64,000 bases of DNA. It comes from an uncultured Desulfobacteraceae bacterium (lineage in GTDB: Bacteria; Desulfobacterota; Desulfobacteria; Desulfobacterales; JALSRD01). The stretch covers positions 4,512 through 68,511 of the forward strand of contig CAYUAQ010000004.1 of the NCBI GenBank assembly GCA_964442705.1. The letters run 5' to 3'. Made by a program: the position numbers and the translations under genes. The notes under the pieces were generated by a model that worked only from the letters and a program-made list of their open reading frames with translations, was not told the DNA's origin and made no database searches. Shown here one piece after another: positions 1 to 16,301 of the stretch. Position 1 is the first letter of the stretch. Every line of letters starts with the position of its first letter.

Positions 1-156
1 GAACGCATCAATCTGCACGAACACAGGCGTTTCACCGATGCCGTCAGGGCAGGCAACCGCGAGGCGGCGGTCAGCATTATTCGAAACGAACACTGGTCTT
101 TTGACCACCATCGGGAGTATTTGGTCGAGGTGTACGGCCTGCACGAGGGGAGCTGA
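1..156 (+). CDS. GntR/FCD-family transcriptional regulator, C-terminal fragment (5' end outside window)
   Basis: Frame 1 is open from the window edge and ends at TGA 154-156. The tail ...INLHEHRRFTDAVRAGNREAAVSIIRNEHWSFDHHREYLVEVYG aligns by eye with the C-terminus of the GntR/FCD protein at 16302-17054 (...INCDEHDRLIHFIREGRREEAARLWRESHWSFEAHEQYIREFYA). Confidence 0.5.
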   Translation, partial: ERINLHEHRRFTDAVRAGNREAAVSIIRNEHWSFDHHREYLVEVYGLHEGS

Positions 157-216
157 TCGGATGAGATCGCGTGGGCTCTAAACCCACGTAGCCGGGTGCG
201 ACTCCCGGGCTTCCCA
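147..216 (+). tRNA. pylT: tRNA-Pyl (anticodon CUA)
   Basis: Hand fold: acceptor GGGGAGC/GCTTCCC (7 bp, one G-T), a single nt, D stem GATC/GATC with a small loop, a single nt, 6-bp anticodon stem CGTGGG/CCCACG, loop CTCTAAA (CTA anticodon), 3-nt variable loop TAG, T arm CCGGG-TGCGACT-CCCGG, discriminator A. CCA is not encoded. This is the atypical tRNA-Pyl geometry, and it sits directly upstream of pylS. Confidence 0.85.
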
Positions 217-269
217 CGGTTAAAGGTGTTCAGGTATCAGGTGTCAGCGGTCAGGGGGTGAGGACGGCA

Positions 270-1112
270 ATGGGTCTGGGGTGGAGTGAGATACAGCGGC
301 GGCGGCTGCAGGAACTGGAGGCGGACGCGGAAGCCCTGGATAGCCGTTTCGAAGATGCCGGACGGCGCAACCGGGCCTTTCAGCACCTGGAAAAGCGGCT
401 GGTGCGCCGGCAGCGGGCGGCCCTGCGGGATTTCCTGGTCCGCCGGATGCGGCCGCGGCTGGCGCTCTTGGAAAGCCGCCTGGTAGAGGCCTTAAACAAG
501 CGGGGCTTTTCCCAGATGGTAACGCCGACGCTCATCTCCCGTGATGATCTCGCCCGTATGTCCATCGGCCGCGACCATGCCTTCAACGAGCAGATCTTCT
601 GGGTGGATTCCCGGCGGTGCCTGCGACCCATGCTGGCGCCCAACCTCTACCGTTTGATGCGGCACCTGGCGCGGCTGCAGCCCGGGCCGGTCCGGATCTT
701 CGAGGTGGGCAGCTGTTTCCGCAAAGAGGCCGGTGGCGCCCGGCACACCAGCGAATTCACCATGCTCAACCTGGTCGAAATGCGGGTGCCCGAGGGCCGG
801 CGCCGGGCCAGGCTGGAAGAACTGGCCGCGGTGGTGATGCAGGCTGCCGGCATCACGGGCCATCGACTGGAGACGGAGTCTTCCGAGGTGTACGGCCGCA
901 CAACGGATATCGTCAGCGGCCCCGACAACCTGGAGGTGGCCTCCTGCGCCGTGGGGCCGCACCCCCTGGACGGCGCCTGGGGCATCGTGGACACCTGGGT
1001 GGGCCTGGGGTTCGGTCTGGAGCGGCTGCTCATGGTGCGCGAAGGCGGTTCCGGCATCGGCAGGTGGTGCCGCAGCAATGCTTACCTGGACGGTGTCCGC
1101 CTCACACTGTGA
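270..1112 (+). CDS. pylS: Pyrrolysyl-tRNA synthetase, catalytic (C-terminal) subunit PylSc
   Basis: Class II aaRS core that aligns along its length with remembered PylS sequences: CLRPMLAPNLY, IFEVGSCFRKE, EFTMLNL, VGPHPLD..WGI, GLGFGLERLLMV, YLDGVRL. ATG 270 has GAGGA 6 nt upstream; the ORF track starts at GTG 258. Confidence 0.9.
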   Translation: MGLGWSEIQRRRLQELEADAEALDSRFEDAGRRNRAFQHLEKRLVRRQRAALRDFLVRRMRPRLALLESRLVEALNKRGFSQMVTPTLISRDDLARMSIGRDHAFNEQIFWVDSRRCLRPMLAPNLYRLMRHLARLQPGPVRIFEVGSCFRKEAGGARHTSEFTMLNLVEMRVPEGRRRARLEELAAVVMQAAGITGHRLETESSEVYGRTTDIVSGPDNLEVASCAVGPHPLDGAWGIVDTWVGLGFGLERLLMVREGGSGIGRWCRSNAYLDGVRLTL

Positions 1113-1173
1113 CTTTAAGGTTTACGCTTACCGATTGTCGGTTGAAAAGGTATCGCGGCGTCGGGAAACGGCC

Positions 1174-2295
1174 ATGGCAGATGACATGAAGCTCCCTGAG
1201 ATGATGGCAGGCATCCTTGACGGCCGCAAGCCGGATGCGGTTGAGATCCGCCGACTGCTGTCACTGCGTGCCTCCCCTGCCGTGGATCTGCTGTTCGAGG
1301 CTGCCCGGCAGGTGCGCCGGCGCCACTTCGCAAACCGTGTGTTTCTCTACGGCTTCATCTATTTCAGCACATACTGCCGCAACAACTGCCGTTTCTGCTA
1401 CTACCGCCGGGCTAACCAGAGGCTGGTGCGTTACCGGCGGTCGAACGTACAGATCCTGGAAGCCGCCGGGCACCTGGCCGACGCCGGCGTGCACCTCATC
1501 GATCTCACCATGGGCGAGGATCCCCTGTTTTTCGATGACGGCGGTGCGTCTTTTGAAAAACTGGGCGCGGTGATCGGTGCGGTGCGGGCGCAGACCGGAC
1601 TGCCCGTCATGATTTCGCCGGGCGTCATCGACCGGGACACGGCCGCCCGGCTGGCGGCGGCGGGGGCGGACTGGTACGCCTGTTACCAGGAAACCCACAA
1701 CCGGCGCCTGTACGCCCGGCTGCGGCCCGCCCAGGATTACGATGTCCGCTGGCAGGCCAAGGAAGGCGCCCGGCGGGCGGGCCTGCTGGTCGAAGACGGT
1801 ATCCTGGCGGGTGTGGGCGAAAGCCTGTCCGATCTGGCCGATTCCATCGAAGCCATGGACCGTCTGGAGGCCGACCAGGTGCGGGTGATGTCTTTCGTGC
1901 CCCGCGACGGGATACCGCTGGCGCCTCCTCCCACGCGTGACCCGCTGAGGGAGCCGGTGACCATCGCCGTCCTGCGGCTGGCTTTTCCGGACCGCCTGAT
2001 TCCGGCCTCCTTGGACGTCGACGGCCTGGCCGGCCTGCAGCAGCGGCTGGAGGCCGGGGCCAATGTGGTCACCTCGCTGATTCCGCCGGAGGGGGGCCTG
2101 GCCGGGGTGGCCAACCGCCGCCTCGACATCGCGGAGGCCCTGCGCACGCCCGCCGCCGTGGCACCGGTGCTGGCCCGCTGCGGGCTCAAGATCGCCTCCC
2201 CGGACGCCTACCGCCGGTGGATGGCGCAGCGCCGCCGGGCGGTTTGCGTGTCACACCGGGTAGCGGCGGCCCAAACGGCTGTCGGAGAGGGGTAA
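1174..2295 (+). CDS. pylB: Radical-SAM methylornithine synthase PylB
   Basis: CRNNCRFCYY radical-SAM cysteine triad and a BioB-like TIM barrel. Its position is right after pylS. ATG 1174 was chosen because the longer ORF (1078) overlaps the pylS end. Confidence 0.9.
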   Translation: MADDMKLPEMMAGILDGRKPDAVEIRRLLSLRASPAVDLLFEAARQVRRRHFANRVFLYGFIYFSTYCRNNCRFCYYRRANQRLVRYRRSNVQILEAAGHLADAGVHLIDLTMGEDPLFFDDGGASFEKLGAVIGAVRAQTGLPVMISPGVIDRDTAARLAAAGADWYACYQETHNRRLYARLRPAQDYDVRWQAKEGARRAGLLVEDGILAGVGESLSDLADSIEAMDRLEADQVRVMSFVPRDGIPLAPPPTRDPLREPVTIAVLRLAFPDRLIPASLDVDGLAGLQQRLEAGANVVTSLIPPEGGLAGVANRRLDIAEALRTPAAVAPVLARCGLKIASPDAYRRWMAQRRRAVCVSHRVAAAQTAVGEG

Positions 2296-3474
2296 ATGCC
2301 CATGCGGGTTGCCATCGTGGGCGGCAAGCTGCAGGGGGTCGAGGCCGCCTATCTGGCGGCCAAGGCCGGCTGGGAGGTCCTGCTGCTGGACCGCCGGGAG
2401 GCGGTGCCGGCGGCCGGCCTCTGCGACCGCTTTCTGCCTTTCGACGTCACCTCGGAGAGCGAGACGGCCGGCGCGCTGGCGGCCGTGGACCTGGTGATCC
2501 CGGCGCTGGAAGACCTCGACGCCCTGAAGGTGCTGAACGCCTGCGCCCATGCCGGCGACATCCGCCTGGCCTTCGACCTGGATGCCTTTTTGCTGACGAC
2601 TTCCAAGGTCCGCTGCAACACCCTGTTTGAACGGATGCACGTTGCCGTCCCGGGCAAGTGGCCCCACTGCCGCCTGCCGGTGATCGTCAAGCCTGACAGC
2701 GCCAGCGGCAGCCGGGGAGTGCGCCTGGTCGCCGATGCCGAAAAGCTGCCGCCTTACGCAAGCCGGCCGGCCGAATACGTGATCGAAGAATTTACGCCCG
2801 GGCCATCCTATTCCGTCGAGGTCCTGGGCGCACCCGGGCGCTATCACGCACTGCAGGTCACGGCGCTCGAGATGGACGCCGGCTTCGACTGCAAACGCGT
2901 CACGGCGCCTGCCGAACTGGAAGACGACCTGGTGCGGCGATTTCAAAGCCTGGCCGTGCGCCTGGCCGCCGCCGTATCCCTGACAGGCGTGATGGACGTC
3001 GAAGCCGTGCTCAACGGGGGGGAACTGAAGGTCCTGGAGATCGACGCCCGCCTGCCCAGCCAGACCCCTACGACGGTCTACTGGTCCACGGGCGTCAACA
3101 TGGTGGCGCTGCTGGGCCGGCTGTTCGGGGGGAGGGAGATCCCCCCGTCTTGCGGTGCGGTCGGCCGGGAACGGGCGGTCATCTACGAACACATCCGCGT
3201 CAACGGCACGCAATTGGAAACGGTCGGCGAGCACATCATGGCCGGCCGCGGACCGCTGCAGGTCGTAGAGGACTTCTTCGGCGCCGACGAGGCCCTCACC
3301 AGTTACCGTCCGGGCCGGAACAAGTGGGTGGCCACCCTGGTTTTTGCGGACAGCGGCCGGCAGACCGCGAGGTGCCGACGGGATGCGGCCCTGGCCGCCA
3401 TCAGCCGGCATTTCGGCCTGCACACGCGCATCGATGAGGAGCCGACATTTTTCACCAGCCCGCAAAAAGTCTGA
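2296..3474 (+). CDS. pylC: ATP-grasp ligase PylC (3-methylornithine--lysine ligase)
   Basis: N-terminal MRVAIVGGKLQGVEAAYLAKKAGWEV-type Rossmann region followed by an ATP-grasp body. It starts immediately after the pylB TAA (TAAATG). Confidence 0.9.
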   Translation: MPMRVAIVGGKLQGVEAAYLAAKAGWEVLLLDRREAVPAAGLCDRFLPFDVTSESETAGALAAVDLVIPALEDLDALKVLNACAHAGDIRLAFDLDAFLLTTSKVRCNTLFERMHVAVPGKWPHCRLPVIVKPDSASGSRGVRLVADAEKLPPYASRPAEYVIEEFTPGPSYSVEVLGAPGRYHALQVTALEMDAGFDCKRVTAPAELEDDLVRRFQSLAVRLAAAVSLTGVMDVEAVLNGGELKVLEIDARLPSQTPTTVYWSTGVNMVALLGRLFGGREIPPSCGAVGRERAVIYEHIRVNGTQLETVGEHIMAGRGPLQVVEDFFGADEALTSYRPGRNKWVATLVFADSGRQTARCRRDAALAAISRHFGLHTRIDEEPTFFTSPQKV

Positions 3475-3490
3475 GTTTATAGCGACGATC

Positions 3491-4312
3491 GTGACACGCC
3501 TGACCACCGATGACATCGCCGGGATTGGCCCTGGTCTTGCCCGATACGACCGCCGCCTCCAAGCCCAGACCGGCCGAACCCTGGCCGGCATCGCCTGCCA
3601 CGCCGCCGGCCTGGGGGAAGATGTTTTCGAGTCGCTGCGGGGGGGCATACGCGTGGCCGTGGTGCCGCTGACCTGCGGAAGAGGGGCCATCGGGGGGTTT
3701 GGCGAGGCCGTGGCGGCGATCGCCGCTCATCTGGGCTTCGCGTCCTTTGTCACATGTGCCACCGACGCCGCCGGCCTGGCCGAGGCCTGTGAGCGCAAGG
3801 CGGACATCCTGCTGTCGGCGGACGACGATCGTTTTGCGGCCATGGACTTTTTCACCGGGAGGGTGTCGGACAACAGCGTGATGACGGCCCGGGGGTTTGT
3901 GGCCGGCCTGGATCTCATGGCCGGCAGGCTGCAGGGGCGGCGGGTGCTGGTCATCGGTTGCGGGCCGGTGGGCGCCGCGGCTGTCGACGCGCTGCTGCAG
4001 GGCGGCGCCCGGGTAAGTGTTCATGATGTGAACGCTTGTCGCATGGAAGCACTGGCGCGCCGGGCACGGGCGCAGATCACCGTTGAAACGGCACCGGCCA
4101 TGGGGGACTGGCAGTTGTTTTTCGACGCTTCCAATGGTACGGACATCATCAGGGGCGAACATGTCCGGGAAGAGACCCTGGTGGCGGCACCGGGTCTGCC
4201 CTGCGGGGTGACGGCCGCCGCGGCCAGGAAACTGGGCCTGCGGCTGCTGCACGACCCCTTGCAGATCGGCGTGGCCGCCATGCTGGCCGACACCTTGGCG
4301 GCGCGTCTGTGA
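3491..4312 (+). CDS. pylD: Pyrrolysine synthase (dehydrogenase) PylD
   Basis: Alignable with remembered PylD: LTTDDIAGI.., VVPLTCGRGAIGGF, ADILLSADDDRF, VLVIGCGPVG, PGLPCGV, DPLQIGVAAML. GTG 3491 is the first start after the pylC stop; the exact start is uncertain. Confidence 0.85.
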   Translation: MTRLTTDDIAGIGPGLARYDRRLQAQTGRTLAGIACHAAGLGEDVFESLRGGIRVAVVPLTCGRGAIGGFGEAVAAIAAHLGFASFVTCATDAAGLAEACERKADILLSADDDRFAAMDFFTGRVSDNSVMTARGFVAGLDLMAGRLQGRRVLVIGCGPVGAAAVDALLQGGARVSVHDVNACRMEALARRARAQITVETAPAMGDWQLFFDASNGTDIIRGEHVREETLVAAPGLPCGVTAAAARKLGLRLLHDPLQIGVAAMLADTLAARL

Positions 4313-4369
4313 AATGGCAACGAAATGACGAGGTTTGCGCTTGTCACAGGAGATTGTTTAGGAGATACC

Positions 4370-4696
4370 GTGAGCCAGAAACCGCCGGCCAAACGCTTCT
4401 ACCGCAAACGCATCGAACTCTTGCGCCTGATCGACAAGATCAAGCTCTGGCCCTCGCGCACCGGCGTGCTGCACGGCATCCGCACCGTCGACGAGCGCGG
4501 TGAAATCGCCGTCATCACCACCCACTGCGGCAAAACCTTCGTGGTGCGCAATTCGCGCAACAGTCGGGCGGCCCGCTGGCTGCGCAACAAGTGGTTCCAG
4601 TCGGTGTGCCCGGTGTGCCGGGTGCCGGACTGGAAACTGGAGAAATACGACAGCACCCGTTTCCGGCGCCACCACGGTTCGTTTCTGAAAAAATAA
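4370..4696 (+). CDS. pylSn: PylS N-terminal tRNA-binding domain protein PylSn
   Basis: LWPSRTGVLHGIR...THCG...VVRNSRNSRAARWLRNKW...CPVCRV matches the N-terminal Zn-binding domain of archaeal PylS (LWMSRTGTLHKIK...NNSRSCRTARAF...CKRCRV). GTG 4370 has AGGAGA 5 nt upstream; ATG 4325 is the alternative start. Confidence 0.8.
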   Translation: MSQKPPAKRFYRKRIELLRLIDKIKLWPSRTGVLHGIRTVDERGEIAVITTHCGKTFVVRNSRNSRAARWLRNKWFQSVCPVCRVPDWKLEKYDSTRFRRHHGSFLKK

Positions 4697-4866: not shown

Positions 4867-5097
4867 TTATCCGGGTGATGACTTCTGCAGCCGCTCTGCG
4901 AGCCAGATCTTGATGATGGATTGCCGGGGAACGCCCAGCCGTTTGGCCTCCTTGTCCAGAGATCGGATCATCCAGAGCGGGAAATCAACATTGACTCTTT
5001 TCTGCTCCTGATTGGGCCTTCTGGCCTTTGAAAGATCCAGGTGCTTCACAAGACGCTCGCCCGCATCGAATTTCTTGTCAAAAACTTTAGCTTTCAT
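4867..5097 (-). CDS. brnA: BrnA-type antitoxin (ribbon-helix-helix)
   Basis: MKAKVFDKKFDAGE...VNVDFPLWMIRSLDKEAKRLGVPRQSIIKIWLAERL is the BrnA pattern. The start overlaps the brnT stop (ATGAAAGCTAA). Confidence 0.7.
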   Translation of the reverse strand: MKAKVFDKKFDAGERLVKHLDLSKARRPNQEQKRVNVDFPLWMIRSLDKEAKRLGVPRQSIIKIWLAERLQKSSPG

Positions 5098-5347
5098 AAA
5101 GCTCAATTTCCTCATTTCTTGCGCGACGCACGGATATGATCCGGATGTTTCCGTCACGGTACGTGATGACCGCGGACCAGTGTTTTTGCGCTATCTTGCC
5201 AATAACCATGAATCTCGGTTCGTCTATTGTTCTTGCCGGAATCTCCAGTAAATCGGGATCATCCCAAAGCAGCTGGGCTTCAATGAAATCGATACCATGT
5301 TTTTCTCCGTTGGTTTCCGATTTTCCCGAATCGAATTCAAAACTCAT
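5087..5347 (-). CDS. brnT: BrnT-type toxin (DUF497)
   Basis: FEFDSGKSETNGEKHGIDFIEAQLLWDDP...RFMVIGKI....AVITYRDGNIRIISVRRA matches the DUF497/BrnT pattern. It sits upstream of and overlaps its antitoxin gene. Confidence 0.75.
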   Translation of the reverse strand: MSFEFDSGKSETNGEKHGIDFIEAQLLWDDPDLLEIPARTIDEPRFMVIGKIAQKHWSAVITYRDGNIRIISVRRARNEEIELYES

Positions 5348-5386: not shown

Positions 5387-8197
5387 TCAAGTATACTTTT
5401 TCCAGGCTTTTTCCGCTCTTGTGGGCGGTCCCGTCAGCCGTCCCGTGACGGTGCGGCCCAGGAAAACCGTTTCTCCCCCCGCCGTGGCGGCGGTGCGATC
5501 CTCGGTGTCGAGGGTGACGGTCTGCCGGTGTGTGCCGGCCCGGCGGGCGGCGGCGCGAATGCGGTCGACCAGCCGTTGCCGGGCGTGGGAATCGGCTTGT
5601 TCGAGTTCCTGAAATACGGGACTGCCGGGGAGCCCCTCTATGCGGTAGCCGTCGTCATCGGGGACGATGCGCAGGTGCGTTTCCACGGCCACTTGGCTGG
5701 TGACGGCGCCGATGGCATTGGCCACATCGGCGTGTTCCGGGAGGATGGCCCGCGTGTGGAGCCGCCGGACGGCCGGCGGCAGGAAGTGCCCGATGGGAGC
5801 GCCGATGCCGATGACGGGCCGCTGCAGCTGGAAATCGATGCCGTAGCCCTCTCCGCCCTCACCGGTCATGCGGTCCATCAAAAAGGCGCTGAGGCCGTGG
5901 TGATCCAGACCATCGGCCTCGATTTCGCCGTCCAGCTGGTGTTTGACGAGTTCGGCGGTCAGCAGCTGCACTACCTTTGTCAACAGTATTTTTACGAGGG
6001 CCTCGTTCGTCATACCGGCCATTGCCGCCAGCAGGTTGGTCATGGCCACCGGCGCTTCGGAATCCCAGCAGGCCAGTTCGCCCTTGACGTGCAGCAGATC
6101 CGTGGGGGTCAGTCCGCAGCACTGCACGACGGCGTGCCGTTCCAGGCGCGCCATGGGCAGCAGGCCGCCGTGCAGGGCGCCCGTGCGGTCCACCAGCTCT
6201 TTGCGGCTGCGCGGCCGTTCCCCTAGCAATTGCGCGATACGGCTTTCCGCCGGGGACAATTCCAGGGGGTTGTCGTGGGTCGTCAGGGTGTAAATGCAGG
6301 CGTCTTCGGAAGAAGCCATGGCCGCTGCCTGGTGGGCAAGATAGTCGATGGCGGCTTTTGTCCCGGCATGTCGGCTCGCCAGCCAAGCCAGGGGCGCCAC
6401 CCGGCGGGGGCCGATGGCAAATTCGCCCCGGCTGAACACGATCTCACTGTCGCCGCCCAGGCCGCGGGTGCGGACCTTAAGGGCCCGGACGTGGGTACGG
6501 TGTCCCCCCAGGTTGGCGCCTTCGCGGCAGAGCTGAACACGGCCGTCTACCAGGGCGGCCGTATCGGTGGTGGTGCCGCCCATGTCCACCACCAGGGCAT
6601 TCCGGCGGCCGGTCAGGAGGCGGGCGCCGGCGATGCTGGCGGCCGGCCCGGATAAAACGGTTTCCACCGGCCGCTGTAGTGCCAGATCGCGTTTCATCAG
6701 AGAGCCGTCGCCCTTTACGACCATCACGGGCGCTTTGATGTCGAAATCCGCGAGCACTTGCCGCAGATCCCCCAGCAGGCGGATCAGCAGGGGCACGATG
6801 CGGGCGTTGAGAACGGCGGTGCGGGCGCGCACGTTGAAATCCAGCAGGCTGGAGAGCTCGTGTCCGCAGGTGACCCCGCAGCCGGTTTCGTCGGCGATGA
6901 TGTCTTTGACCCGCAGTTCGTGTTCCGGATTGATAGAACCGGCGAAACCGGACACCGCAAAGGCGCTGACCTTCTGTTGTGCGATCATCCGGCGGGCGAT
7001 GCCGCGGACCTGATGTTCGTCGACAGGCTCGATGACGCGGCCGGATATTTCCAGCCGCCCGCGGATGACTTCCCGCGGCGTGTGCGTGATGTCGAACATG
7101 TCCGTCCGCCCGCCGGGCGGCATGAGCAGCAGTCCCACCGGCTGCCCGCGGTTCTCCACCACGGCGTTGGTGGCCAGGGTGGTGGAAACGGCGGTCAGTT
7201 CCACGCCGGCGAGCCGCTTCCGGTCGAGCCCGGCCAGGGCCCCCCGGATGCCCACGGTATAGTCCCAGGGGGTCGTCAGGGCCTTGCTTTTGCCGATCAG
7301 GCGCCGGTGTCGCAGGTCGAATATGACGGCGTCGGTGTAAGTGCCGCCGGCGTCGATGCCCAGCCCGAACCGGATGGGCGGTTCGCCTGCCGGCCGTTTT
7401 GCCCCCACGACTTCGGTGGCCAGGCCACTGCCGGCCCCGGGGGCCAGCACTTTGCCGGCGGACAGCCTGCCGCGAGCGGCATCGAAGGTGATGACCTCAC
7501 CGGGCGGTACCACCAGGATGTCCGCGGTGCTTTGCGAAGCCGTGAGTAGGTCCCTGAGCAGAGACAGATCGCCCGGCAGCCGCTCGTATTTCCAGCCATG
7601 CTTGTCGGCCATGTCGCGGGCGTAGCGGGCGTAACGCTGCGTCGCCCCCCGGCCGGTGTCGATGAAGGCAGCCCGCTGGTAGTTTTTTTGCCACTGGTTC
7701 AGGAATGCGACGGTGCTGCGGGCATGCTCCCGGCCGTATTTTGCCACCAGTTCATCGACGTGCACGCGGGTGGAGCCCATGTAGACATAGGGCCGTTCCG
7801 GGGACAGGGGTTCGGCTTTTTCGTCGTGCCAGCCGGCCGAAATGTAATAGGTTCCCGGGTAGTGCCTGCACTGGCGGCGGTAGGCCCCGTCGCCACCCAG
7901 CAGCAGGGCGATGCAGTCGTGCACCCGGGCGATCACCAGTGGAACGGAGCGGGCCCTGATGTCCACCGTTCCCCGGCCGCAGACACCGTAGCCGATGACG
8001 ATGCGCCGGTATCTCCCGCTGGCCGAGGCTTCATCGATGGCGACCTGCAGGCGGCGGTTCAGCTCGGCCGGGTTTTCATGCAGGCCGCCCGGGAGGCTGC
8101 GCAGCTGGACGGGCAGGCTGTTTTCCCGGGCGACCTGACGGATGTCGCCGGCCAGCACGGCGCAGGCGATGACCAGGATGGCGGGCCGCTTTGCCAT
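5387..8197 (-). CDS. Fusion protein: N-terminal DUF1638 domain + hydantoinase/oxoprolinase-type (ASKHA) ATPase
   Basis: Residues ~1-215: ILVIACAVL..GGLHENPAELNRRLQVAID..IVIGYGVCG..LVIARVHDCIALLLG (DUF1638-like). Residues ~275-936: GIDAGGTYTDAVIFD and VVDMGGTTTDTA phosphate-binding loops typical of hydantoinase A family proteins. The ATG lies 3 nt after the upstream mttB-like stop. Confidence 0.7.
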   Translation of the reverse strand: MAKRPAILVIACAVLAGDIRQVARENSLPVQLRSLPGGLHENPAELNRRLQVAIDEASASGRYRRIVIGYGVCGRGTVDIRARSVPLVIARVHDCIALLLGGDGAYRRQCRHYPGTYYISAGWHDEKAEPLSPERPYVYMGSTRVHVDELVAKYGREHARSTVAFLNQWQKNYQRAAFIDTGRGATQRYARYARDMADKHGWKYERLPGDLSLLRDLLTASQSTADILVVPPGEVITFDAARGRLSAGKVLAPGAGSGLATEVVGAKRPAGEPPIRFGLGIDAGGTYTDAVIFDLRHRRLIGKSKALTTPWDYTVGIRGALAGLDRKRLAGVELTAVSTTLATNAVVENRGQPVGLLLMPPGGRTDMFDITHTPREVIRGRLEISGRVIEPVDEHQVRGIARRMIAQQKVSAFAVSGFAGSINPEHELRVKDIIADETGCGVTCGHELSSLLDFNVRARTAVLNARIVPLLIRLLGDLRQVLADFDIKAPVMVVKGDGSLMKRDLALQRPVETVLSGPAASIAGARLLTGRRNALVVDMGGTTTDTAALVDGRVQLCREGANLGGHRTHVRALKVRTRGLGGDSEIVFSRGEFAIGPRRVAPLAWLASRHAGTKAAIDYLAHQAAAMASSEDACIYTLTTHDNPLELSPAESRIAQLLGERPRSRKELVDRTGALHGGLLPMARLERHAVVQCCGLTPTDLLHVKGELACWDSEAPVAMTNLLAAMAGMTNEALVKILLTKVVQLLTAELVKHQLDGEIEADGLDHHGLSAFLMDRMTGEGGEGYGIDFQLQRPVIGIGAPIGHFLPPAVRRLHTRAILPEHADVANAIGAVTSQVAVETHLRIVPDDDGYRIEGLPGSPVFQELEQADSHARQRLVDRIRAAARRAGTHRQTVTLDTEDRTAATAGGETVFLGRTVTGRLTGPPTRAEKAWKKYT

Positions 8198-8200
8198 GGG

Positions 8201-9625
8201 TCATGCCCTGCGCGCCCGTTGCACATACGCCTTGAGTTCGGCGTCCAGGGCTGGATCGAGCATGGTTTCCGGAACTTGGGACAGGATTTCTTTGTAGCGG
8301 CGGTTGGCCCGCGAGAGGGCATCCTGGCGGCCCTCTTTTTCCCAGGTGCCGAAGGGTTCCCACACCGACACGCTGGGCGCCCAGAAATCCCGGGCGTGGG
8401 CGAAGGTGCTGTCGTGCAGCAGGTAGTCGCCGCCGTGGCCCACCTCCTGGATGATGTCCAGCGACAGGGCTTCGGGAGAAAATTCCAGCCCCCGGCTGAT
8501 GCGCATCACCCGGCTGATGAGCTCCTCGTCGATGACGAATTTCTCGTAGGAGGTGCACATGATGGAGTCCAACACCCCCAGGCACTCGTGGATGATGTGC
8601 GCGCCCGAGAGCATGCCCATCATCAGGTTCTGCATGGTCTCGTAGCCGGCCTGGCAGTCCACCTGCTTGGCATCGGTCATGCCGCACATGGTGCGGGTGG
8701 GCAGATGGTACAGGTTCAGGGCCAGCTGCAGGTTGGCGGTGTTGATGAGAAAGGCCTCGGGCGGCCCGGTGACGTAGCTGGCGATCTTCATGTTGGCGGT
8801 CGTGGAAGCCGGGCTGTAGACCACGGGGTTTCCCGGGGTGATGAGCTGTATCAGGGTCAGGCCGGCCAGGATCTCGGCGTTTTGTTGTACCACCACCCCC
8901 AGGGGGTTGATGGGGCCGGAAACCCCGGCCATGACACAAGCCAACACCAACACGGGCTGGTGCCGCCGGGCAAAGGCGATCATGGTTTCGGCGGCATCGG
9001 TGGAAAACTTCAGCGGGCTCAAGGGGTTGATACTGACAGCCACGGCGTAGTGGTCTTCGAGATAATTTTTTCCTCCCATGGCGATTTCCACCATGTCCAT
9101 CATCTGATTTACCTGGGGCGCATAGCCGCAATAGCTGATGATGGGCTTGTCGGTGTGTTTGAGAATGGTGTAGGTCACATGCAGGTGTTTATCTTCCGGG
9201 GTTACGTCCCGAGGTTCCACCGGAAAAGAGCCTACCAGCGAGACCACATCACTGGCCTGGCAAAGCTTCTGGATGTTGGCAAAATCGTCCAGAAGTGCCG
9301 GCCGTCGTCCCTGATCTTCGTTCTGGATATCAACCACCCCCCCGTTGGGCTGCACTGCAAACCCTTCACCCAGGGTGACCGAGCGCTCGCGGTTGCGGGC
9401 CTCCCAGCGAAAAGTGGGTGGTGTCTGCTCGATGGCCTTTTCCACCATTTTGGCATCGAGGTAGACCGTTTCGCCCTCGACCCGGGCGCCGTGCTGTTTG
9501 AAGATACCCAGGGCCTCCGGGCACTTGAAGACAACGCCGGTTTCTTTCAGGATTTTAAGGGATGCCTCGTGAACCCGGGTCAGGTTCTCCGGCGACAGGA
9601 TTTGCAGTTTCGTGTGTAAAGCCAT
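8201..9625 (-). CDS. MttB-superfamily (trimethylamine methyltransferase-like) protein, non-pyrrolysine member
   Basis: Full-length alignment by eye with Methanosarcina MttB. The segment LPTRTMCGMTDAKQVDCQAGYE aligns with LPSYVAGSOSDAKVPDDQAGHE, so the Pyl position is ATG (Met316, nt 8678-8680). The ORF has no internal stop. Confidence 0.85.
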   Translation of the reverse strand: MALHTKLQILSPENLTRVHEASLKILKETGVVFKCPEALGIFKQHGARVEGETVYLDAKMVEKAIEQTPPTFRWEARNRERSVTLGEGFAVQPNGGVVDIQNEDQGRRPALLDDFANIQKLCQASDVVSLVGSFPVEPRDVTPEDKHLHVTYTILKHTDKPIISYCGYAPQVNQMMDMVEIAMGGKNYLEDHYAVAVSINPLSPLKFSTDAAETMIAFARRHQPVLVLACVMAGVSGPINPLGVVVQQNAEILAGLTLIQLITPGNPVVYSPASTTANMKIASYVTGPPEAFLINTANLQLALNLYHLPTRTMCGMTDAKQVDCQAGYETMQNLMMGMLSGAHIIHECLGVLDSIMCTSYEKFVIDEELISRVMRISRGLEFSPEALSLDIIQEVGHGGDYLLHDSTFAHARDFWAPSVSVWEPFGTWEKEGRQDALSRANRRYKEILSQVPETMLDPALDAELKAYVQRARRA

Positions 9626-9728
9626 GACAGGAACCTTTCATAGATAATGGTATCCGGGAAAAAGGCCAGCGCCTCCAATGTTCTGGATGACATTCAGGAA
9701 CGGAACTTGTTTGTGATGGGCAGCGTGT

Positions 9729-10334
9729 CTATTTCTCGATGGGGGTGGCGGGCAGCGCCTTAACCTCTTTTTTCGTCAGTTTCAGCTGAATAACCTCTTC
9801 GTCGAAGGTTTCGATAGCCTCGATGGGGATAGAAACCTGTTTTTTGTCCCAGGGCAGGCCTTCACGGATCACCAGGTGGGTGATCTGCCAGCTCTCCGGG
9901 TTTACAAAAAATTCATCCACCTGGCCGATTCGTCCGTCCCGGGCCCTCACCCGGGTACCCGTGGACAGGGCCGTCTGCAGGGATGAGATCTGGCGTCGCC
10001 GCTCCGAGACGACTTTCTTTATTTCCACCATCTGCGGCCACAGCTCGGTGATTTTGGGATCGGCAGCAAACTGGCGGATCTTCTGCCGGGTGTGATCGGT
10101 CTGCTCGAAAAGATCCAGGTTGCGGACTTCCCTTTTGGTGCGGTTCAGCAGAATCAGTTCCGGCGTGGTCTCCTTGATCCAGCGGGCCGGTACGAGATAC
10201 TTGTTGCGCGGCGGGCGGTCGCTCTTTACCACCACGTGGGAAACCGTCTCGGTGCGGGAGTTGATAATGATGTGGGTGGATTTCCCGAATCGTCCGTCGG
10301 TGCAGTGTACGTAGGCGCTGAAGGGGTATTTCAC
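9729..10334 (-). CDS. PRC-barrel domain protein (two barrels)
   Basis: Two repeats of the PRC-barrel pattern: ..HCTDGRFGKSTHIIINSRTETVSHVVV.. and ..VRARDGRIGQVDEFFVNPESWQITHLVI... Confidence 0.55.
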   Translation of the reverse strand: MKYPFSAYVHCTDGRFGKSTHIIINSRTETVSHVVVKSDRPPRNKYLVPARWIKETTPELILLNRTKREVRNLDLFEQTDHTRQKIRQFAADPKITELWPQMVEIKKVVSERRRQISSLQTALSTGTRVRARDGRIGQVDEFFVNPESWQITHLVIREGLPWDKKQVSIPIEAIETFDEEVIQLKLTKKEVKALPATPIEK

Positions 10335-10351
10335 GGCCGCCTCCTTTTGGT

Positions 10352-11389
10352 CTAGTTTACGGCGATTTTGCTGCCGCCCCGGTCGTCGGCCAGGTGGCAG
10401 GCCACGTGATGGTCGGGCAGCACCTCCCGGTAGGCGGGCGGCGCTTCTTCGCAGATGTCCCGGGCCAGGGGGCAGCGCGTGTGAAACACGCAGCCGGCCG
10501 GGGGGTTGGCCGGGCTGGGCACTTCGCCCTCCAGGGGAATACGCTTTCGCCGGCGCTCCAGCCGCGGTTCGGGGATAGGCACGGCGGACATCAGGGATTG
10601 GGTGTAGGGGTGCAGCGGGTCGTGGAACAGCTTGTCGCGCCGGGTCAGTTCCACCAGGTTTCCCAGGTACATGACGGCCACCCGGTGGGAAATGTGCTGC
10701 ACCATGCTCAGGTCGTGGGCGATGAACATGTAGGTCAGCCCCAGCTGCTTCTGCAGGTCCTCGAACAGGTTGACCACCTGGGCCTGGATGGATACGTCCA
10801 GCGCCGAAATGGGTTCGTCGCAGACCACGAAATCCGGGTTCAGGGCCAAGGCCCGGGCGATGTTGATGCGCTGGCGCTGGCCACCGGAAAACTCGTGGGG
10901 AAAGCGCACCATGTGGGAGGCCTGGAGCCCCACCAGTTCCAGCAGTTCCACGACGCGGTCGCGAATCTTGTCGGCCGGCATGGTGCCCTGGACCACCAGC
11001 GGTTCGGCAATGATTTTGCGGACCGAGTGACGCGGGTTGAGCGAATCGTAGGAGTCCTGGAAGATCATCTGCATGCGCGGCCGCAGCCGGCGGATTTCCG
11101 CCGCTGGAAGCGCCGTGAGTTCTATATCTTCCAAAAAGACCTTGCCGGAAGTCGGCTTCTGCAGCTGCAGTACCGCCCGCCCCGTGGTGGACTTGCCGCA
11201 GCCGCTTTCGCCCACCACTCCCAGGGTTTCCCCGCGCCGGATTTCGAAGGAGACGTCATCCACGGCTTTGACGTTGCCCACCAGGCGGCTGATGATGGCC
11301 CCCTTGCGAATGGGGAAATATTTTTTCAGATGCTCTACCCGCAGGAGAACACCGTCGCCGTCGGCCTCATGGGGTCTGTGCTCAGACAT
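10352..11389 (-). CDS. ABC transporter ATP-binding protein (Opp/Dpp F-type)
   Basis: Walker A GESGCGKST, signature FSGGQRQR, Walker B VVCDEP and a C-terminal oligopeptide-type extension. ATG 11389 overlaps the upstream stop by 8 nt. Confidence 0.85.
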   Translation of the reverse strand: MSEHRPHEADGDGVLLRVEHLKKYFPIRKGAIISRLVGNVKAVDDVSFEIRRGETLGVVGESGCGKSTTGRAVLQLQKPTSGKVFLEDIELTALPAAEIRRLRPRMQMIFQDSYDSLNPRHSVRKIIAEPLVVQGTMPADKIRDRVVELLELVGLQASHMVRFPHEFSGGQRQRINIARALALNPDFVVCDEPISALDVSIQAQVVNLFEDLQKQLGLTYMFIAHDLSMVQHISHRVAVMYLGNLVELTRRDKLFHDPLHPYTQSLMSAVPIPEPRLERRRKRIPLEGEVPSPANPPAGCVFHTRCPLARDICEEAPPAYREVLPDHHVACHLADDRGGSKIAVN

Positions 11390-12389
11390 TTTCTCTGGGT
11401 TTCTCCTCGTTGACATCGTAAAAGCAGGTGATCTGGTGTTGTTCCCCCACCGACACCTGCGGCGGCACTTCGTGCCAACAGCGCTCGAAAGCGTGGGGGC
11501 AGCGCCACACAAACTGGCAATGCGCCGGCGGGGCCATCAAGTCCGGAGGGGAGCCCTCGATGCTGACCAGGCGCTTGCTGCCGGCGGCGTCCAGCCGCGG
11601 CAGGGCTTCCAGAAGGCCGATGGTGTAGGGGTGGCAGGGGTGGTCGTAAAGGTCGTCCACCGGTGCGATCTCCACCGGCCGGCCGGCATACATCACCAGG
11701 ACCCGGTCGGCGATGCCGGCCACCACGCCCAGGTCGTGGGTGATCCAGATGACGGCGACGTTCAGTTCCTTTTGCAGCTTCTGGGTCAGTTCCACGATCT
11801 GGGCCTGCACGGTGACGTCCAGGGCCGTGGTGGGCTCGTCGGCGATGACGATCTTGGGGTTGCAGGCCATGGCCACGGCGATCATGACCCGCTGGCGCAT
11901 ACCGCCGGAAAACTGGTGGGGGTAATTGCGGTAGCGCTGTTTGGCGCCCGGAATGCCCACCCGCTCCAGCAGTTCTATCACCCGCCGGTGGCAGGCGTCC
12001 TGTCCCAGATCCAGATGCCGGGTGAGTGACTCGGCGATCTGCTGCCCCACCGTCATCACCGGGTTCAGGGCGCTCAAGGCGTCTTGAAAGATGAAGCCGA
12101 TCTTGCCCCCGCGCACCTTGGATATTTCGGCCTTGCTCAGTTTCAGTAGGTCGATGGTCCCGTCCTCATCATAGAAAAGGGCCTGGCCGCCCTCGATGCG
12201 TGCCGGCGGCATGGGCAGCAGGTGCAGCAGGGACATCATGGTCACACTTTTACCGCTGCCGCTCTCGCCCACGATGGCCAGGGTCTCGCCGGCTTCCAGA
12301 TCGAAGGTGACGCCGTTCAAGGCGTGGACGACACCGTCGAAGGTGTAAAAGCGGGTGACCAGATCAGTAACTTCCAGGATTGTGGGCAT
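11382..12389 (-). CDS. ABC transporter ATP-binding protein (Opp/Dpp D-type)
   Basis: Walker A GESGSGKS, signature FSGGMRQR, Walker B IIADEPTTALD. Confidence 0.85.
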   Translation of the reverse strand: MPTILEVTDLVTRFYTFDGVVHALNGVTFDLEAGETLAIVGESGSGKSVTMMSLLHLLPMPPARIEGGQALFYDEDGTIDLLKLSKAEISKVRGGKIGFIFQDALSALNPVMTVGQQIAESLTRHLDLGQDACHRRVIELLERVGIPGAKQRYRNYPHQFSGGMRQRVMIAVAMACNPKIVIADEPTTALDVTVQAQIVELTQKLQKELNVAVIWITHDLGVVAGIADRVLVMYAGRPVEIAPVDDLYDHPCHPYTIGLLEALPRLDAAGSKRLVSIEGSPPDLMAPPAHCQFVWRCPHAFERCWHEVPPQVSVGEQHQITCFYDVNEEKPRENV

Positions 12390-12405
12390 GGCGGTTCCTC
12401 GTGCG

Positions 12406-13338
12406 TTATCGTTTCATTCTCCGCATGCGGGGATCCAGGGCATCCCGCAGCCAGTCGCCGAACAGGTTCATGCCCAGGCCGGTGAACACGATGGCCAGCC
12501 CCGGGAACGTGGCGATCCAGGGATAGATGGTCAGATACTTGCGACCGGTGGCCAGCATGTTGCCCCAACTGGGCACGCTGGGCGGCACGCTCAAGCCCAG
12601 GAAGCCCAGGCCGGCTTCGTAGAAAATCATGGCGGACATCTCGAAGGTGGCGATGGTGATCAGGGGGCCCAGCAGGTTGGGCAGGATGTGGTCGAAAATG
12701 ATGCGCAGTTTTCCGGCCCCGATGCTCCTGGCGGATTCCACGAACCCGGATTCGCGCAGCCGCAGCACCTCTCCCCGCGTGATGCGGACGAAAATGGGGA
12801 TATCGGTGAAGCCGAAAATCAGGATGACGTTGAGCAGGCTTCTCCCCAGGATGGCGGCGATAAAGACGACAAATACCAGATACGGCAGGGCCAGAATCAG
12901 GTTGACCCCACCCATGATGATGTTGTCCGTACGACCCCCGGCGTACCCGGCCACCAGTCCGATGATCAGCCCCAGGGAGCCGGCGATGAGCACGCCGAAA
13001 AACCCCACCGTGAGCGACACCCGGCTGCCGTAAATGATGCGGCTGAGCAGATCGCGGCCCAGGTTGTCGGTGCCCAGGGGATGGGAGATGTCCCCCTTGG
13101 CGGCCCATATGGGCGGGCGTTTGGCGGCACGCAGGTCCTGCTTCAGCGGCGGGTGCGGTGCGATCCAGGGGGCCAGCAAGGCGCTGGCCACCACCATGAG
13201 GAACATGATCAGGCCCAGCAGCCCGGGCTTGTCGCGCCAGAGCAGCCGGCCCACGTAGCCCAACTTCGGTCCTATGCCCTGCTCGGCCTCCTGGTCCACC
13301 AGCAGGCCGGTTTCTTTGGTTTCCACCGCATCTGCCAT
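12406..13338 (-). CDS. ABC transporter permease (DppC/OppC-type)
   Basis: Multi-TM protein with the BPD-transporter EAA-like loop (ESARSIGAGKLRIIFDHILPN). Confidence 0.85.
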   Translation of the reverse strand: MADAVETKETGLLVDQEAEQGIGPKLGYVGRLLWRDKPGLLGLIMFLMVVASALLAPWIAPHPPLKQDLRAAKRPPIWAAKGDISHPLGTDNLGRDLLSRIIYGSRVSLTVGFFGVLIAGSLGLIIGLVAGYAGGRTDNIIMGGVNLILALPYLVFVVFIAAILGRSLLNVILIFGFTDIPIFVRITRGEVLRLRESGFVESARSIGAGKLRIIFDHILPNLLGPLITIATFEMSAMIFYEAGLGFLGLSVPPSVPSWGNMLATGRKYLTIYPWIATFPGLAIVFTGLGMNLFGDWLRDALDPRMRRMKR

Positions 13339-13342
13339 GGGT

Positions 13343-14290
13343 CTAATCTCCGTATCTGATTCTAGGGTCCGCCAGGCCGTAAGCGATATCCGTCAACAGG
13401 TTGAGGACCACCACCACCAGGCTGGTGAAAAACGCAATGGCCTGCACCAGGGCGAAATCCCGGTTGCCGATGGACTCGGCCAGCAGATTTCCCAGGCCGG
13501 GCCACGAGCAGATGGTCTCGATGTAGATGGAACCGCTGAGCAGGTACCCGAACTGCACGCCGATGATGCTGATCAGGGGAATGGCGGCGTTTCGCAGGAT
13601 GTGCCGGATGTAGATCTGCCGGTCGGACAATCCCTTGCTGTAAGCGGTGCGCACGAAGTCTTCGTTGCGGATCTCCATCACCGCCGAACGGGTGAAGCGC
13701 ACCAGCTGTCCCATGGTGAACAGGCCCAGGGCGAAGGCCGGCAGGATCACGGAGCGGGTGGGCAGGGTGATCCCCAGGAACTGCCAGGTTTCCCGGCCGA
13801 AAGCCGGCAACCACCCCAGCTTGACGGCAAAAATGATGATCAGGATAAGCGCCAGCCAGAAATTGGGGATGGTCTGCCCTATGAGCCCCGCGCCGCGGGC
13901 CAGGGAGTCCCAAACGCTGCGGGGGTTGGAGCCCCCCAGCAGACCCAGCGGTATGCCGATGAGCATGGCCATCACCAGCGCGGTGCTGGCCAGTTCCACC
14001 GTGGCCGGCAGCCGTTCGAGAATGAGATCCATGGCCGGCTGCTTGTGCCGCAGGGAATCGCCGAAATCACCGACCACGGCGCCGGCGATGAAGTCGCCGA
14101 ACTGCACGATCAGCGGGCGGTTGAAGCCCAGTTCTTCCCGCACGGCCTCGATCTCTTCGGGCGAAGCGTTGCGCGAAACCATCAGGGAAACCGGGTCTCC
14201 GGTGGCCTGCAGCATGAAAAAGATGATGAACAGGACGCCGAAGAGGATCAGGATCGACTGGAAAAGACGGGAGAGAATGTATCGTTGCAT
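13343..14290 (-). CDS. ABC transporter permease (DppB/OppB-type)
   Basis: MQRYILSRLFQSILILFGV N-terminus typical of DppB/OppB. EAA loop: RTAYSKGLSDRQIYIRHILRNA. Confidence 0.85.
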   Translation of the reverse strand: MQRYILSRLFQSILILFGVLFIIFFMLQATGDPVSLMVSRNASPEEIEAVREELGFNRPLIVQFGDFIAGAVVGDFGDSLRHKQPAMDLILERLPATVELASTALVMAMLIGIPLGLLGGSNPRSVWDSLARGAGLIGQTIPNFWLALILIIIFAVKLGWLPAFGRETWQFLGITLPTRSVILPAFALGLFTMGQLVRFTRSAVMEIRNEDFVRTAYSKGLSDRQIYIRHILRNAAIPLISIIGVQFGYLLSGSIYIETICSWPGLGNLLAESIGNRDFALVQAIAFFTSLVVVVLNLLTDIAYGLADPRIRYGD

Positions 14291-14418
14291 GGGTGCCGCC
14301 TTATCAGAAATTCTGGCCCGCCCCGGAAGGCACACGATGCCCGGGAGCGGGGGCAGGGTCTGGGAACCGCAGGGAAAGAGGTTCCGGGCGGCGCCTGTGG
14401 CGGCCGCCCGGGAAGTGG

Positions 14419-15945
14419 TTATTCCTCAATCCAGGTGTCTTTCAGGAAGTAATTTTCCGGCGGACGCGGCTTGTAATCTTTTACCTTGACGCTGATGGCT
14501 TCGAAGGCCACGGGTTGGTACAGATAGATGAACGGCGGGTTTTCGTACATGTAGCGCTGCAGTTCCACGTACAGCTTGGCGCGGGCCGCATCGTCCACGG
14601 TGGTGCCGATCCTCTTCAGGTAATCCAGGATTTTGGGGTCTTCCCAGGCCGAGAAGCTGGCGCTCTTGCCGCCCAGGGCGCCCTGCAGCCGGGGCAGTGA
14701 CTCGCCGCTGGACTCGGACCAGCTGTCGCCGAACATGGGCGGCAGCTCCTTCTTGGCCTCCAGGTCCCAGTACTTGCCGGACTCCATGATCTTGAGATCG
14801 GCCTCGACGCCGATATCCCCCAGGTAGCCCTGGATGGCCTGGCAGACCTGCTCGAAGTTGGTGTAGGCCCCGGCCGGGCAGGCGAAGTCGATCTTGAACC
14901 CCTTTTCGTATCCGGCTTTTTTCATCAGCTCTTTGGCCTTTTTAACGTCATAGCCGTAGGGCTTGAGGTCCTTGTCGTATCCCAGGTTTTTGTAGGTCAC
15001 AAAGCCCGTGAGGGGACGTCCGTGGCCCTCGAACAGGGCGTCCAGAATGGCATCCACGTCCACGGCGTAGTTCATGGCCAGGCGCACCTCCCGCTTTTCC
15101 ACCGGTGTTCCCTTGCCGCTGGTCATGTTGTTGAAGGCGATGTAGTACACGCGGTCCACCGGGTAGGTGATGACCTTGATGTTTTTGGCTCCTTTGAGCG
15201 TGTTGGCCTCTTCGGAGCTCAGGCGCCCCACGATGTCCACCTCGCCGGTTTTGATGGCCGCAACCCGGGTGGAGGATTCCGGGATGGGGCGGAAAACCAG
15301 CTTTTTTACCTTGGGCAGACCCTTTTCCCAGTAGTCGGGGTTGGCCTCGAAGACGATGCGGTCGCCCTTTTTCCACTCCACGAACTTAAAGGGTCCAGTG
15401 CCCACCGGGTGCTTGGCAAATCCCTTCTCGCCCACCTCGGCGATGTATTTGGGCGGCACCATGGCCCAGTAGTCGGCGATGACGCGCAGCAGAAGGGGGT
15501 TGGGGCCGTCGGTGGTCACCTTGACGGTGTAGTCGTCGACTTTTTCCACCGACTTGGCCATGGCCCATTTTTTCTTCCACTGCATCTTGTTGCCCTTGCC
15601 CCGTTTCCAGGAAAACACCACGGCATCGGCGGTAAAGGGTTCGCCGTTGTGGAACTTGACGCCCTTGCGGAGCTTGAAGGTAAAAGTCGTGCCGTCTTCG
15701 GAAGCCGTCCAGCTTTCGGCCAGTGCCGGTACCGGCTTGCCGGTGTCGTCCAGCCAGGTCAGTGAGTTGTACAGGTGCCATGCCGTGGTGGTGGCCTGCC
15801 GCTCGGCGGCCACCGGAACATCCAGCGAGTTGGGCATGGTCGCGATGGCCACCTTCAATGTCCCCTTGGGCTCTGCGGTTGCCACGGTCGACAGGAAACC
15901 GATCACTGTGAGTATGGCCAGGGCCACGGTCAACGTTTTTCTCAT
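14419..15945 (-). CDS. ABC transporter substrate-binding protein, family 5 (peptide/nickel/opine type)
   Basis: Signal peptide MRKTLTVALAILTVIGFLSTVATA followed by a typical SBP_bac_5 body (LVEWKKGDRIVFEANPDYW, YYIAFN). Confidence 0.85.
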   Translation of the reverse strand: MRKTLTVALAILTVIGFLSTVATAEPKGTLKVAIATMPNSLDVPVAAERQATTTAWHLYNSLTWLDDTGKPVPALAESWTASEDGTTFTFKLRKGVKFHNGEPFTADAVVFSWKRGKGNKMQWKKKWAMAKSVEKVDDYTVKVTTDGPNPLLLRVIADYWAMVPPKYIAEVGEKGFAKHPVGTGPFKFVEWKKGDRIVFEANPDYWEKGLPKVKKLVFRPIPESSTRVAAIKTGEVDIVGRLSSEEANTLKGAKNIKVITYPVDRVYYIAFNNMTSGKGTPVEKREVRLAMNYAVDVDAILDALFEGHGRPLTGFVTYKNLGYDKDLKPYGYDVKKAKELMKKAGYEKGFKIDFACPAGAYTNFEQVCQAIQGYLGDIGVEADLKIMESGKYWDLEAKKELPPMFGDSWSESSGESLPRLQGALGGKSASFSAWEDPKILDYLKRIGTTVDDAARAKLYVELQRYMYENPPFIYLYQPVAFEAISVKVKDYKPRPPENYFLKDTWIEE

Positions 15946-16259
15946 TGCTTCCTCCTTTCAGGTCGAGCTGTTTTGAGTGAACACTATTTATCAAATAGTG
16001 GCCCCTAACTGATATATCAACAGCCTTGGGGTGTCAAGAAATTACTAAGGTTTATGTGACACAATTAAGTTCAGGCGCTTCTCATTCAAAACGACAGGGC
16101 AAAGCCCCATGACCGGAAAACAGGCATAAAATCATATATCTCATTGAAATTTATGCCATTTAATTTGCGGTTGGTAGCATATTAGCTGCTGGTAAAGAAA
16201 AAGTGAATCAGTTGCGCATGTACGCGGTGGCAATACAGGCATTTTATCTAAAATATCAG

Positions 16260-16276: not shown

Positions 16277-16301
16277 TCCCACCGGCTGTACATGAAAGAT
16301 T

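Follow-up and report, generated by a model that had tools for sequence, protein, structure and literature searches.

A complete split-pylS pyrrolysine cassette with an A73/U8 tRNA-Pyl from an uncultured Desulfobacteraceae-like bacterium

A stretch of 64 kb of DNA from contig CAYUAQ010000004.1 (hereafter the window, meaning the whole stretch that was analyzed) carries near its 5′ edge the six genes pylT-pylSc-pylB-pylC-pylD-pylSn, which make up a complete and intact bacterial pyrrolysine (Pyl) operon with a split pyrrolysyl-tRNA synthetase (PylRS). In the explanation that we hold with high confidence, this operon is probably functional and comes from a Desulfobacteraceae-like host. A complete split-pylS cassette in this order had been proposed in an initial annotation of the DNA, and the proposal is borne out here both by equivalog hidden Markov models (HMMs) and by matches to solved structures. 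The functions of the parts are well understood. PylB is a radical-SAM mutase that converts L-lysine to (3R)-3-methyl-D-ornithine, PylC ligates 3-methyl-D-ornithine to the epsilon-amine of a second lysine in an ATP-dependent reaction, and PylD oxidises the product of PylC, which then cyclises to pyrrolysine. PylSc, aided by the tRNA-binding PylSn, charges the tRNA-Pyl of anticodon CUA with pyrrolysine, and the charged tRNA reads in-frame UAG. With all six parts at hand, pyrrolysine would be synthesized and inserted at UAG in vivo. What sets the window apart is a natural bacterial tRNA-Pyl of the A73/U8 type that is accompanied by a PylSc of canonical length; this, and the recurrence of non-G73 discriminators among bacterial Pyl systems, adds a modest extra interest to an already known system.

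The tRNA gene pylT is located at 147-217 on the forward strand. It is the sole tRNA that ARAGORN detects across the window, and the program calls it as tRNA-Pyl with anticodon cta; this call and direct reading of the sequence agree with the CUA anticodon, the tRNA-Pyl geometry and the length of 70 nt that had been described at the outset. The acceptor stem consists of 7 bp (GGGGAGC/GCUUCCC) and includes G1:C72. A single nucleotide, U8 (U154 of the window), connects it to a D stem of 4 bp (GAUC/GAUC) with a D loop of 6 nt, and a single G separates the D stem from the anticodon stem of 6 bp (CGUGGG/CCCACG). This stem closes the anticodon loop CUCUAAA and is followed by a variable loop of three nucleotides (UAG) and a T stem of CCGGG/CCCGG. 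Counted up to its discriminator, A216 (A73), the tRNA is 70 nt long, and the CCA end is not encoded. The minimum free energy fold is the cloverleaf (−36.7 kcal/mol, z = −3.8), which was equaled by none of 200 shuffled sequences. The 22 proposed base pairs, checked over an alignment of pylT and 21 relatives, are standard pairs in 99.2% of cells, against at most 59% in slid controls, and compensatory double changes were present in 10 of the 22 pairs, a level that 0 of 500 shuffles reached. General Rfam models gave no match in the window at the gathering threshold; at a permissive E-value the best was tRNA-Sec with 26 bits against a cut-off of 47, together with a tymovirus tRNA-like element. This failure reflects the atypical core of tRNA-Pyl and is uninformative against the identity of the tRNA, and for this reason a dedicated covariance model was built from 22 relatives of the G73 type, with the clade of the window excluded. 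Its single match in the window (147-219) scores 79.8 bits (E~1e-18). A failure of this sequence on tRNA covariance models, which the initial annotation regarded as evidence that would speak against its call, is therefore confined to the general Rfam models. The region 147-217 is a genuine tRNA and specifically a tRNA-Pyl.

Five open reading frames (ORFs) follow on the same strand, tightly packed and without internal stops, and their translations contain every motif string that had been quoted for them in advance. The first, pylSc (270..1112), encodes the catalytic subunit of PylRS and scores 302 bits on the NCBIfam equivalog PylS_Cterm (TIGR02367; cut-off 178), with PylSc of Desulfitobacterium hafniense (3DSQ/2ZNI) as the best solved structure (E 4e-89). 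The radical-SAM methylornithine synthase gene pylB (1174..2295) reaches 458.5 bits on TIGR03910 (cut-off 348), carries the cluster motif CxxxCxxC as CRNNCRFC, and is best matched by 3T7V (E 3e-82). The ATP-grasp 3-methylornithine--L-lysine ligase gene pylC (2296..3474) has 399 bits on TIGR03909 (cut-off 248) and 4FFL as the best structure (E 4e-48), and the NAD-dependent 3-methylornithyl-N6-lysine dehydrogenase gene pylD (3491..4312) has 240 bits on TIGR03911 (cut-off 150), the Rossmann motif GCGPVG, and 4J43 as the best structure (E 2e-29). The last gene, pylSn (4325..4696), encodes the small tRNA-binding subunit of PylRS; it scores 128 bits on PylS_Nterm (TIGR03912; cut-off 51) and is best matched by the N-terminal domain of M. 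mazei PylRS (5UD5, E 1e-11), with which one His, one Cys and a CxxC are aligned that we take to be the zinc ligands of that structure. Pfam assigns the proteins to the corresponding superfamilies and also recognises the PylD_N domain. Generic families stay far under their own cut-offs, as with HydE (116 bits), BioB (91), SrmL (39), and also the PheS-like, D-Ala-D-Ala ligase and dehydrogenase families, so that a better fit of the five ORFs to generic aminoacyl-tRNA synthetases, BioB or ATP-grasp proteins, on which the first call had been made to depend, does not exist.

Gene starts were refined with a Logan contig that is identical to the window (L081, 5.3 kb, reaching 807 bp upstream). For pylSc, ATG 270 is the start in the L081 gene call, and GAGGA lies 5 nt before it, in a reading frame that is open from GTG 258. 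The L081 gene call places the start of pylB at ATG 1078, overlapping pylSc, and homology to PylB of the related locus L002 begins at ATG 1174, which is the start given above. The ATG of pylC comes directly after the pylB stop. The start of pylD is GTG 3491 by the L081 gene call, and that of pylSn is either ATG 4325 or GTG 4370, of which the L081 gene call favours GTG 4370.

The tRNA itself departs from the common type in two of its identity elements. A73 and U8, together with the unencoded CCA, are found in the window (and in L081) and in the loci L001/L082 and L002/L083, whereas in most pylT genes of Desulfobacterales positions 8 and 73 are G and CCA is encoded. The A73/U8 clade of the window has only three distinct members among two large collections, and it is sister to a U73 clade (L003/L085, L004, and L087/L088) within one non-G73 lineage of PylSc. 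The G73 and G8 identity elements are absent from the tRNA of the window and G1:C72 is present, and since the compact tRNA core, PylSc, a separate pylSn and pylB, pylC and pylD are all there, the locus stays in the split Pyl family with a difference in identity elements. In the D. hafniense enzyme, G73 and G1:C72 are major identity elements of PylSc, and the loss in efficiency is about 100-fold for G73A, 30-fold for G73U and 4.6-fold for G8U (PMC1851642).

If the operon is at work, it needs genes with an in-frame UAG, and the relatives point to the gene of trimethylamine methyltransferase, mttB. In six of these loci (L001-L004, L012, and L025) mttB contains a TAG in frame, near codon 334 and in the context ...VAGG-O-GDSK..., and in the super-clade of the window the Pyl-type gene is located at L001 4802-6169, L002 4041-6146, L003 8230-9558, and L004 1044-2441, on the reverse strand in each locus. 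In L001 and L002 the TAG-mttB cluster lies 3-5 kb upstream of gntR, the regulator gene that also precedes pylT in the window, and the neighborhood of mttB in L002 includes mttC, a pterin-binding methyltransferase and a DAO/GcvT-type oxidase. Because of this synteny with the two closest relatives, the client is most likely a TAG-containing mttB upstream of gntR and outside the window, and the cassette would then serve trimethylamine methyltransferase (UAG near codon 334) together with the corrinoid protein that is its partner. As a separate observation, TAG is used twice in mttB of this super-clade, once at the Pyl position (~codon 334) and then as the apparent stop. In L002 mttC follows downstream in the frame of this second TAG, so that read-through would fuse MttB to MttC; the gain from read-through would be 7-13 residues only in L001 and L004.

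Clients within the window were searched by reading TAG as sense in six frames and by read-through extension of the 13 genes that end with TAG. Among 47 scored genes the stop codon is TAG in these 13, TGA in 24 and TAA in 10, so UAG still serves as a stop, and Pfam coverage indicates that the genes ending with TAG are complete at that codon. Two candidates were tried and rejected. One is the MttB-family gene at 8201-9625 (-), which is full length, lacks any TAG, carries Met in the place of Pyl (...TMCG-M-TDAK vs ...VAGG-O-GDSK), and scores 338 bits on the Pyl-MttB equivalog TIGR02369 with its cut-off of 525. The other is a pair of ORFs in the same frame, 50454-53390 and 53412-55292, that might have been a single gene of 1600 aa interrupted by TAG; the second has a lipoprotein signal peptide of its own, starting at ATG 53442, and TAG 53388-53390 is a normal stop even though the following ORF shares its frame. 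This pair is located in an island of low G+C (49558-56422; 0.52-0.55 vs ~0.62 for the rest of the window) that encodes FlgT_C-, CsgG-, and LpoB-like proteins and a peptidoglycan-binding putative lipoprotein, and that may have been acquired horizontally.

Several of these observations weigh against a working operon and have to be set beside those in its favor. A73 is strongly detrimental in D. hafniense, the sole bacterial enzyme tested, and charging could be poor in a system without adaptation. No UAG-containing methylamine methyltransferase and no other convincing read-through gene is present in the 64-kb window, and the MttB homolog at 8201-9625 belongs to a non-Pyl branch of the MttB superfamily. 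As for the upstream DNA, the exact contig reaches 807 bp, and a 50-nt exact pattern was unmatched in the metagenome collection. Taken to the extreme, the cassette could be a decaying or silent relic, in which the A73/U8 changes have crippled charging and no UAG is decoded in the lineage; the losses measured for G73A and G8U, a window in which no UAG client is present and the neighboring MttB homolog has dispensed with Pyl, and the frequent use of TAG as an ordinary stop would all suit such a history. It is however hard to reconcile with the state of the genes. The five proteins are full length and above their equivalog cut-offs, and when the window is compared with L002, a relative that also has A73, the ratio of nonsynonymous to synonymous substitution rates (dN/dS) is 0.19 for pylSc, 0.29 for pylB, 0.31 for pylC, 0.22 for pylD, and 0.14 for pylSn, at dS of 0.5-0.8, a divergence over which the 71-nt tRNA has remained identical. 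The cassette is therefore under purifying selection within the A73 clade, which argues that it is probably functional. Moreover, the A73 relatives L001 and L002 keep the in-frame TAG of mttB with an intact reading frame downstream of it, and the six independent non-G73 lineages of PylSc that are described below are hard to square with a lethal change. We therefore consider a relic as highly improbable.

A second alternative accepts a functional cassette but gives it clients other than trimethylamine methyltransferase, with the mttB adjacency of the relatives not kept in this genome; such clients could be other methylamine methyltransferases, or ordinary genes ending with TAG that undergo low-level read-through. 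That no client is visible in the window agrees with this idea, as does the downstream methyl-transfer cluster, which differs from that of the relatives in its non-Pyl MttB, its fusion of DUF1638 and hydantoinase, and its Opp-type transporter, and large pyrroproteomes are reported for deltaproteobacterial symbionts (PMC1976440). On the other hand, L001 and L002, which both have a TAG-mttB 3-5 kb upstream, share the gntR-pylT junction of the window at 92% conservation, the TAG-ended genes of the window are complete at their TAG, and at 53388, the lone place where TAG lies between two ORFs of one frame, there are two genes, the second of which begins with its own lipoprotein signal peptide. Other clients are thus unlikely in our estimate, though less so than a relic, and an operon that serves an upstream TAG-mttB remains the explanation that we prefer. 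Since UAG still ends about a quarter of the ordinary genes, such an operon would probably be expressed conditionally, and the GntR/FCD regulator at the 5′ edge of the cassette would be its likely control. The initial annotation had further ranked the cassette as the most consequential locus of the window. That rank presupposes UAG clients, and these are missing from the 64 kb.

How a bacterial PylSc copes with A73 was approached by a survey of discriminators in 89 non-redundant bacterial PylSc/pylT pairs. G73 is found in 73 pairs, A73 in eight and U73 in eight, and the 16 non-G73 pairs are spread over six separate clades of PylSc. Besides the clade of the window, A73 lineages are represented by L016 and L034 (both from metagenome-assembled genomes, MAGs, of Aminicenantes), L059/L146 (a MAG of Acidimicrobiia), and L071 (Desulfobacteraceae UBA2156), and further U73 lineages by L091, L112, L119, and L130. 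As a side observation, pylT is not adjacent to pylSc in L091, L112, L119, and L071 but lies 3-8.6 kb from it. In the literature, A73 in tRNA-Pyl is stated only for the archaea HMET1 and MSBL1 (Zhang et al., 2022, PMC9071458; Guo et al., 2022, PMC9630628), where it is read by a PylRS without PylSn whose motif-2 loop is one residue shorter (PMC9071458; PMC9630628). For bacteria, U73 (“pylTU”) has been described in three cases, a Phycisphaeraceae bacterium, Guaymas Basin Sediment 11, and H. silvermanii (Guo et al., 2022, PMC9630628), and no report of a bacterial A73 tRNA-Pyl was found in the searchable literature, later papers included. A shortened motif-2 loop of the HMET1 kind as the partner of A73 was rejected for the window, where the loop is full-length. 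The motif-2 region has in fact the same length in 89 of the 89 PylSc sequences, and consequently the archaeal solution to A73 is not used in these bacteria. The combination of an A73/U8 tRNA with a full-length motif-2 loop suggests that recognition of the discriminator has been relaxed or re-specified by a route unlike that of HMET1 PylRS2, and that the PylSc of the window has an altered specificity for N73.

Two positions of PylSc co-vary with the discriminator. Residue 105 (570-572 of the window) is Arg in SIG-R-DH and is aligned to Glu in MTIG-E-DH of D. hafniense. It is Asp or Glu in 46 of 73 G73 systems and in none of the 16 non-G73 systems; conversely, Lys or Arg occurs in one of 73 G73 systems and in 10 of 16 non-G73 systems, including four of the six independent non-G73 lineages. 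A naive Fisher test gives p ~1e-6 to 1e-8, uncorrected for phylogeny. Residue 159 of the motif-2 loop (732-734 of the window) is Gly in the clade of the window; some members of the U73 sister clade, as well as L059/L146, have Ser instead, and neither Gly nor Ser was ever seen together with G73. No column of PylSc perfectly splits A73 from G73 over all lineages, and residue 105 is the best of them. We hypothesize that residues 105 and 159 act as determinants of N73 recognition. It is conceivable, although we give it somewhat less than even chances, that the clade of the window is a natural bacterial PylSn+PylSc/tRNA-Pyl pair which has shifted from G73 to A73 (with U8) by a mechanism unlike the shortened loop of archaea; the change of the acidic residue 105 to Arg or Lys and Gly159 are possible contributors to such a shift. 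G73 has been regarded as a major conserved identity element of tRNA-Pyl, and the discriminator base alone has been shown to be enough for mutual orthogonality of two PylRS/tRNA pairs. If the pair of the window does prefer A73, it could by nature be orthogonal to class-S/N pairs of the G73 type and would provide a new starting point for mutually orthogonal systems of genetic-code expansion. Non-G73 discriminators are in any case recurrent in bacterial Pyl systems, and they offer natural material for studies of N73 recognition by class-S PylRS and for the engineering of further orthogonal pairs.

At its 5′ side the cassette overlaps the gene of the regulator. The 3′ end of a GntR/FCD-family regulator gene occupies 1..156 (+) and is cut by the edge of the window; the full gene is present on L081 (295-963) and encodes 222 aa with the Pfam domains GntR and FCD. 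Its TGA stop at 154-156 is inside pylT, which gives an overlap of 10 nt. The 50 C-terminal amino acids show 92% identity with those of L001 and L002 and hold the same position relative to pylT there, and the end of gntR inside pylT is likewise kept in these relatives (L001 9894-9897, L002 9847-9850). One may speculate that release of pylT by RNase P from a gntR read-through transcript would remove the gntR stop codon, and that such processing could couple expression of the regulator and the tRNA.

Downstream of pylSn a type II toxin-antitoxin pair is located at 4867-5347 (-), consisting of BrnT (PF04365, 1.5e-25) and BrnA (NF047399, 120 bits), in DNA of 0.59 G+C and with a near-consensus sigma-70-like promoter (TTGACA-16-TATATT, 5384-5357). 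It sits between pylSn and the first gene of the methyl-transfer-like cluster, which spans 5387-17054 on the reverse strand. This cluster consists of a DUF1638 + hydantoinase/oxoprolinase-type fusion of 936 aa (5387-8197), the non-Pyl MttB-superfamily methyltransferase (8201-9625), a weak PRC-barrel/DUF2171 ORF of 201 aa (9729-10334), an Opp/Dpp-type ABC transporter of five genes (10352-15945), and a second GntR/FCD regulator (16302-17054), all on that strand. No corrinoid-protein gene was recognised within the cluster, and its substrate is possibly a quaternary amine. Further on, an ORF of the sodium:dicarboxylate symporter family (SDF; 21958-22857, -) covers only positions 113-384 of the 387 in the profile and lies directly against the stop of the SHMT gene that precedes it. 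Either the gene has been truncated at its N-terminal side or survives as a remnant, or its start was mis-called.

The rest of the window is a Gram-negative chromosome of about 62% G+C, with genes for Kdo transferase, heptosyltransferases, an outer-membrane beta-barrel protein, multihaem cytochromes, a sigma-54 activator, SHMT, and TsaD, and both this general content and the relatives of the cassette point to a Desulfobacteraceae-like Gram-negative host. The closest PylSc sequences, at 86 and 83% identity, come from uncultured Desulfobacteraceae MAGs, and the next ones, at about 50-65%, from Desulfobacterales, Aminicenantes, Planctomycetota, Bacillota, and others. When species-representative genomes were scanned with PylSc, 212 relatives were confirmed, and a scan of metagenomes added at least 335; the gene order pylT-Sc-B-C-D-Sn of the window is identical in L002, L004, L011, and L012. 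With hundreds of related loci, the earlier remark that this is not a new system holds, and the cassette is a further member of a well-populated known system from an uncultured lineage. The same numbers qualify the description of the cassette as rare, which is fair for biology at large but not among Desulfobacterales. The cassette marks an uncultured bacterium resembling sulfate reducers as probably UAG-recoding and trimethylamine-using, and gene callers would annotate its Pyl genes wrongly, as truncated.

Among known systems, the closest in architecture is pylT-pylSc-pylBCD-pylSn of D. hafniense (class “PylSn+PylSc” or “S”). Both have a split synthetase with a separate pylSn in the last place, and the Desulfitobacterium-type arrangement that was assigned to the window from the start is correct. 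The two PylSc proteins align from end to end without indels in motif 2, and the two tRNAs have in common the spacer of one nucleotide between acceptor and D stems, the anticodon stem of 6 bp, the variable loop of 3 nt, and G1:C72. They differ in that the D. hafniense tRNA has G73 and G8 and that of the window A73 and U8 with CCA unencoded; in PylSc, the Glu of MTIG-E-DH corresponds to Arg in the window and Gln at the second variable position of the motif-2 loop to Gly, and the host is a Firmicute in one case and a Gram-negative, Desulfobacterota-like bacterium in the other. Loci of Desulfobacterales and Deltaproteobacteria (L006-L080), among them those of the Olavius Delta-1 symbiont, Desulfobacterium, Desulfobacula, and Desulfospira, contain the same six components at 49-86% identity in PylSc, usually in the same gene order and with a TAG-mttB neighborhood, yet nearly all of them have a G73/G8 tRNA with encoded CCA, unlike the window. 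The PylRS2/tRNA-Pyl2 pair of Candidatus Methanohalarchaeum thermophilum HMET1 and the MSBL1 system share A73 with the window; they are archaeal, have no PylSn and recognise A73 via the shortened motif-2 loop, whereas in the window PylSn is present and motif 2 is of canonical length. The bacterial U73 systems of Guo et al. (2022) are split and have departed from G73 in the same way as the window, with the difference that their discriminator is U and that of the window is A.

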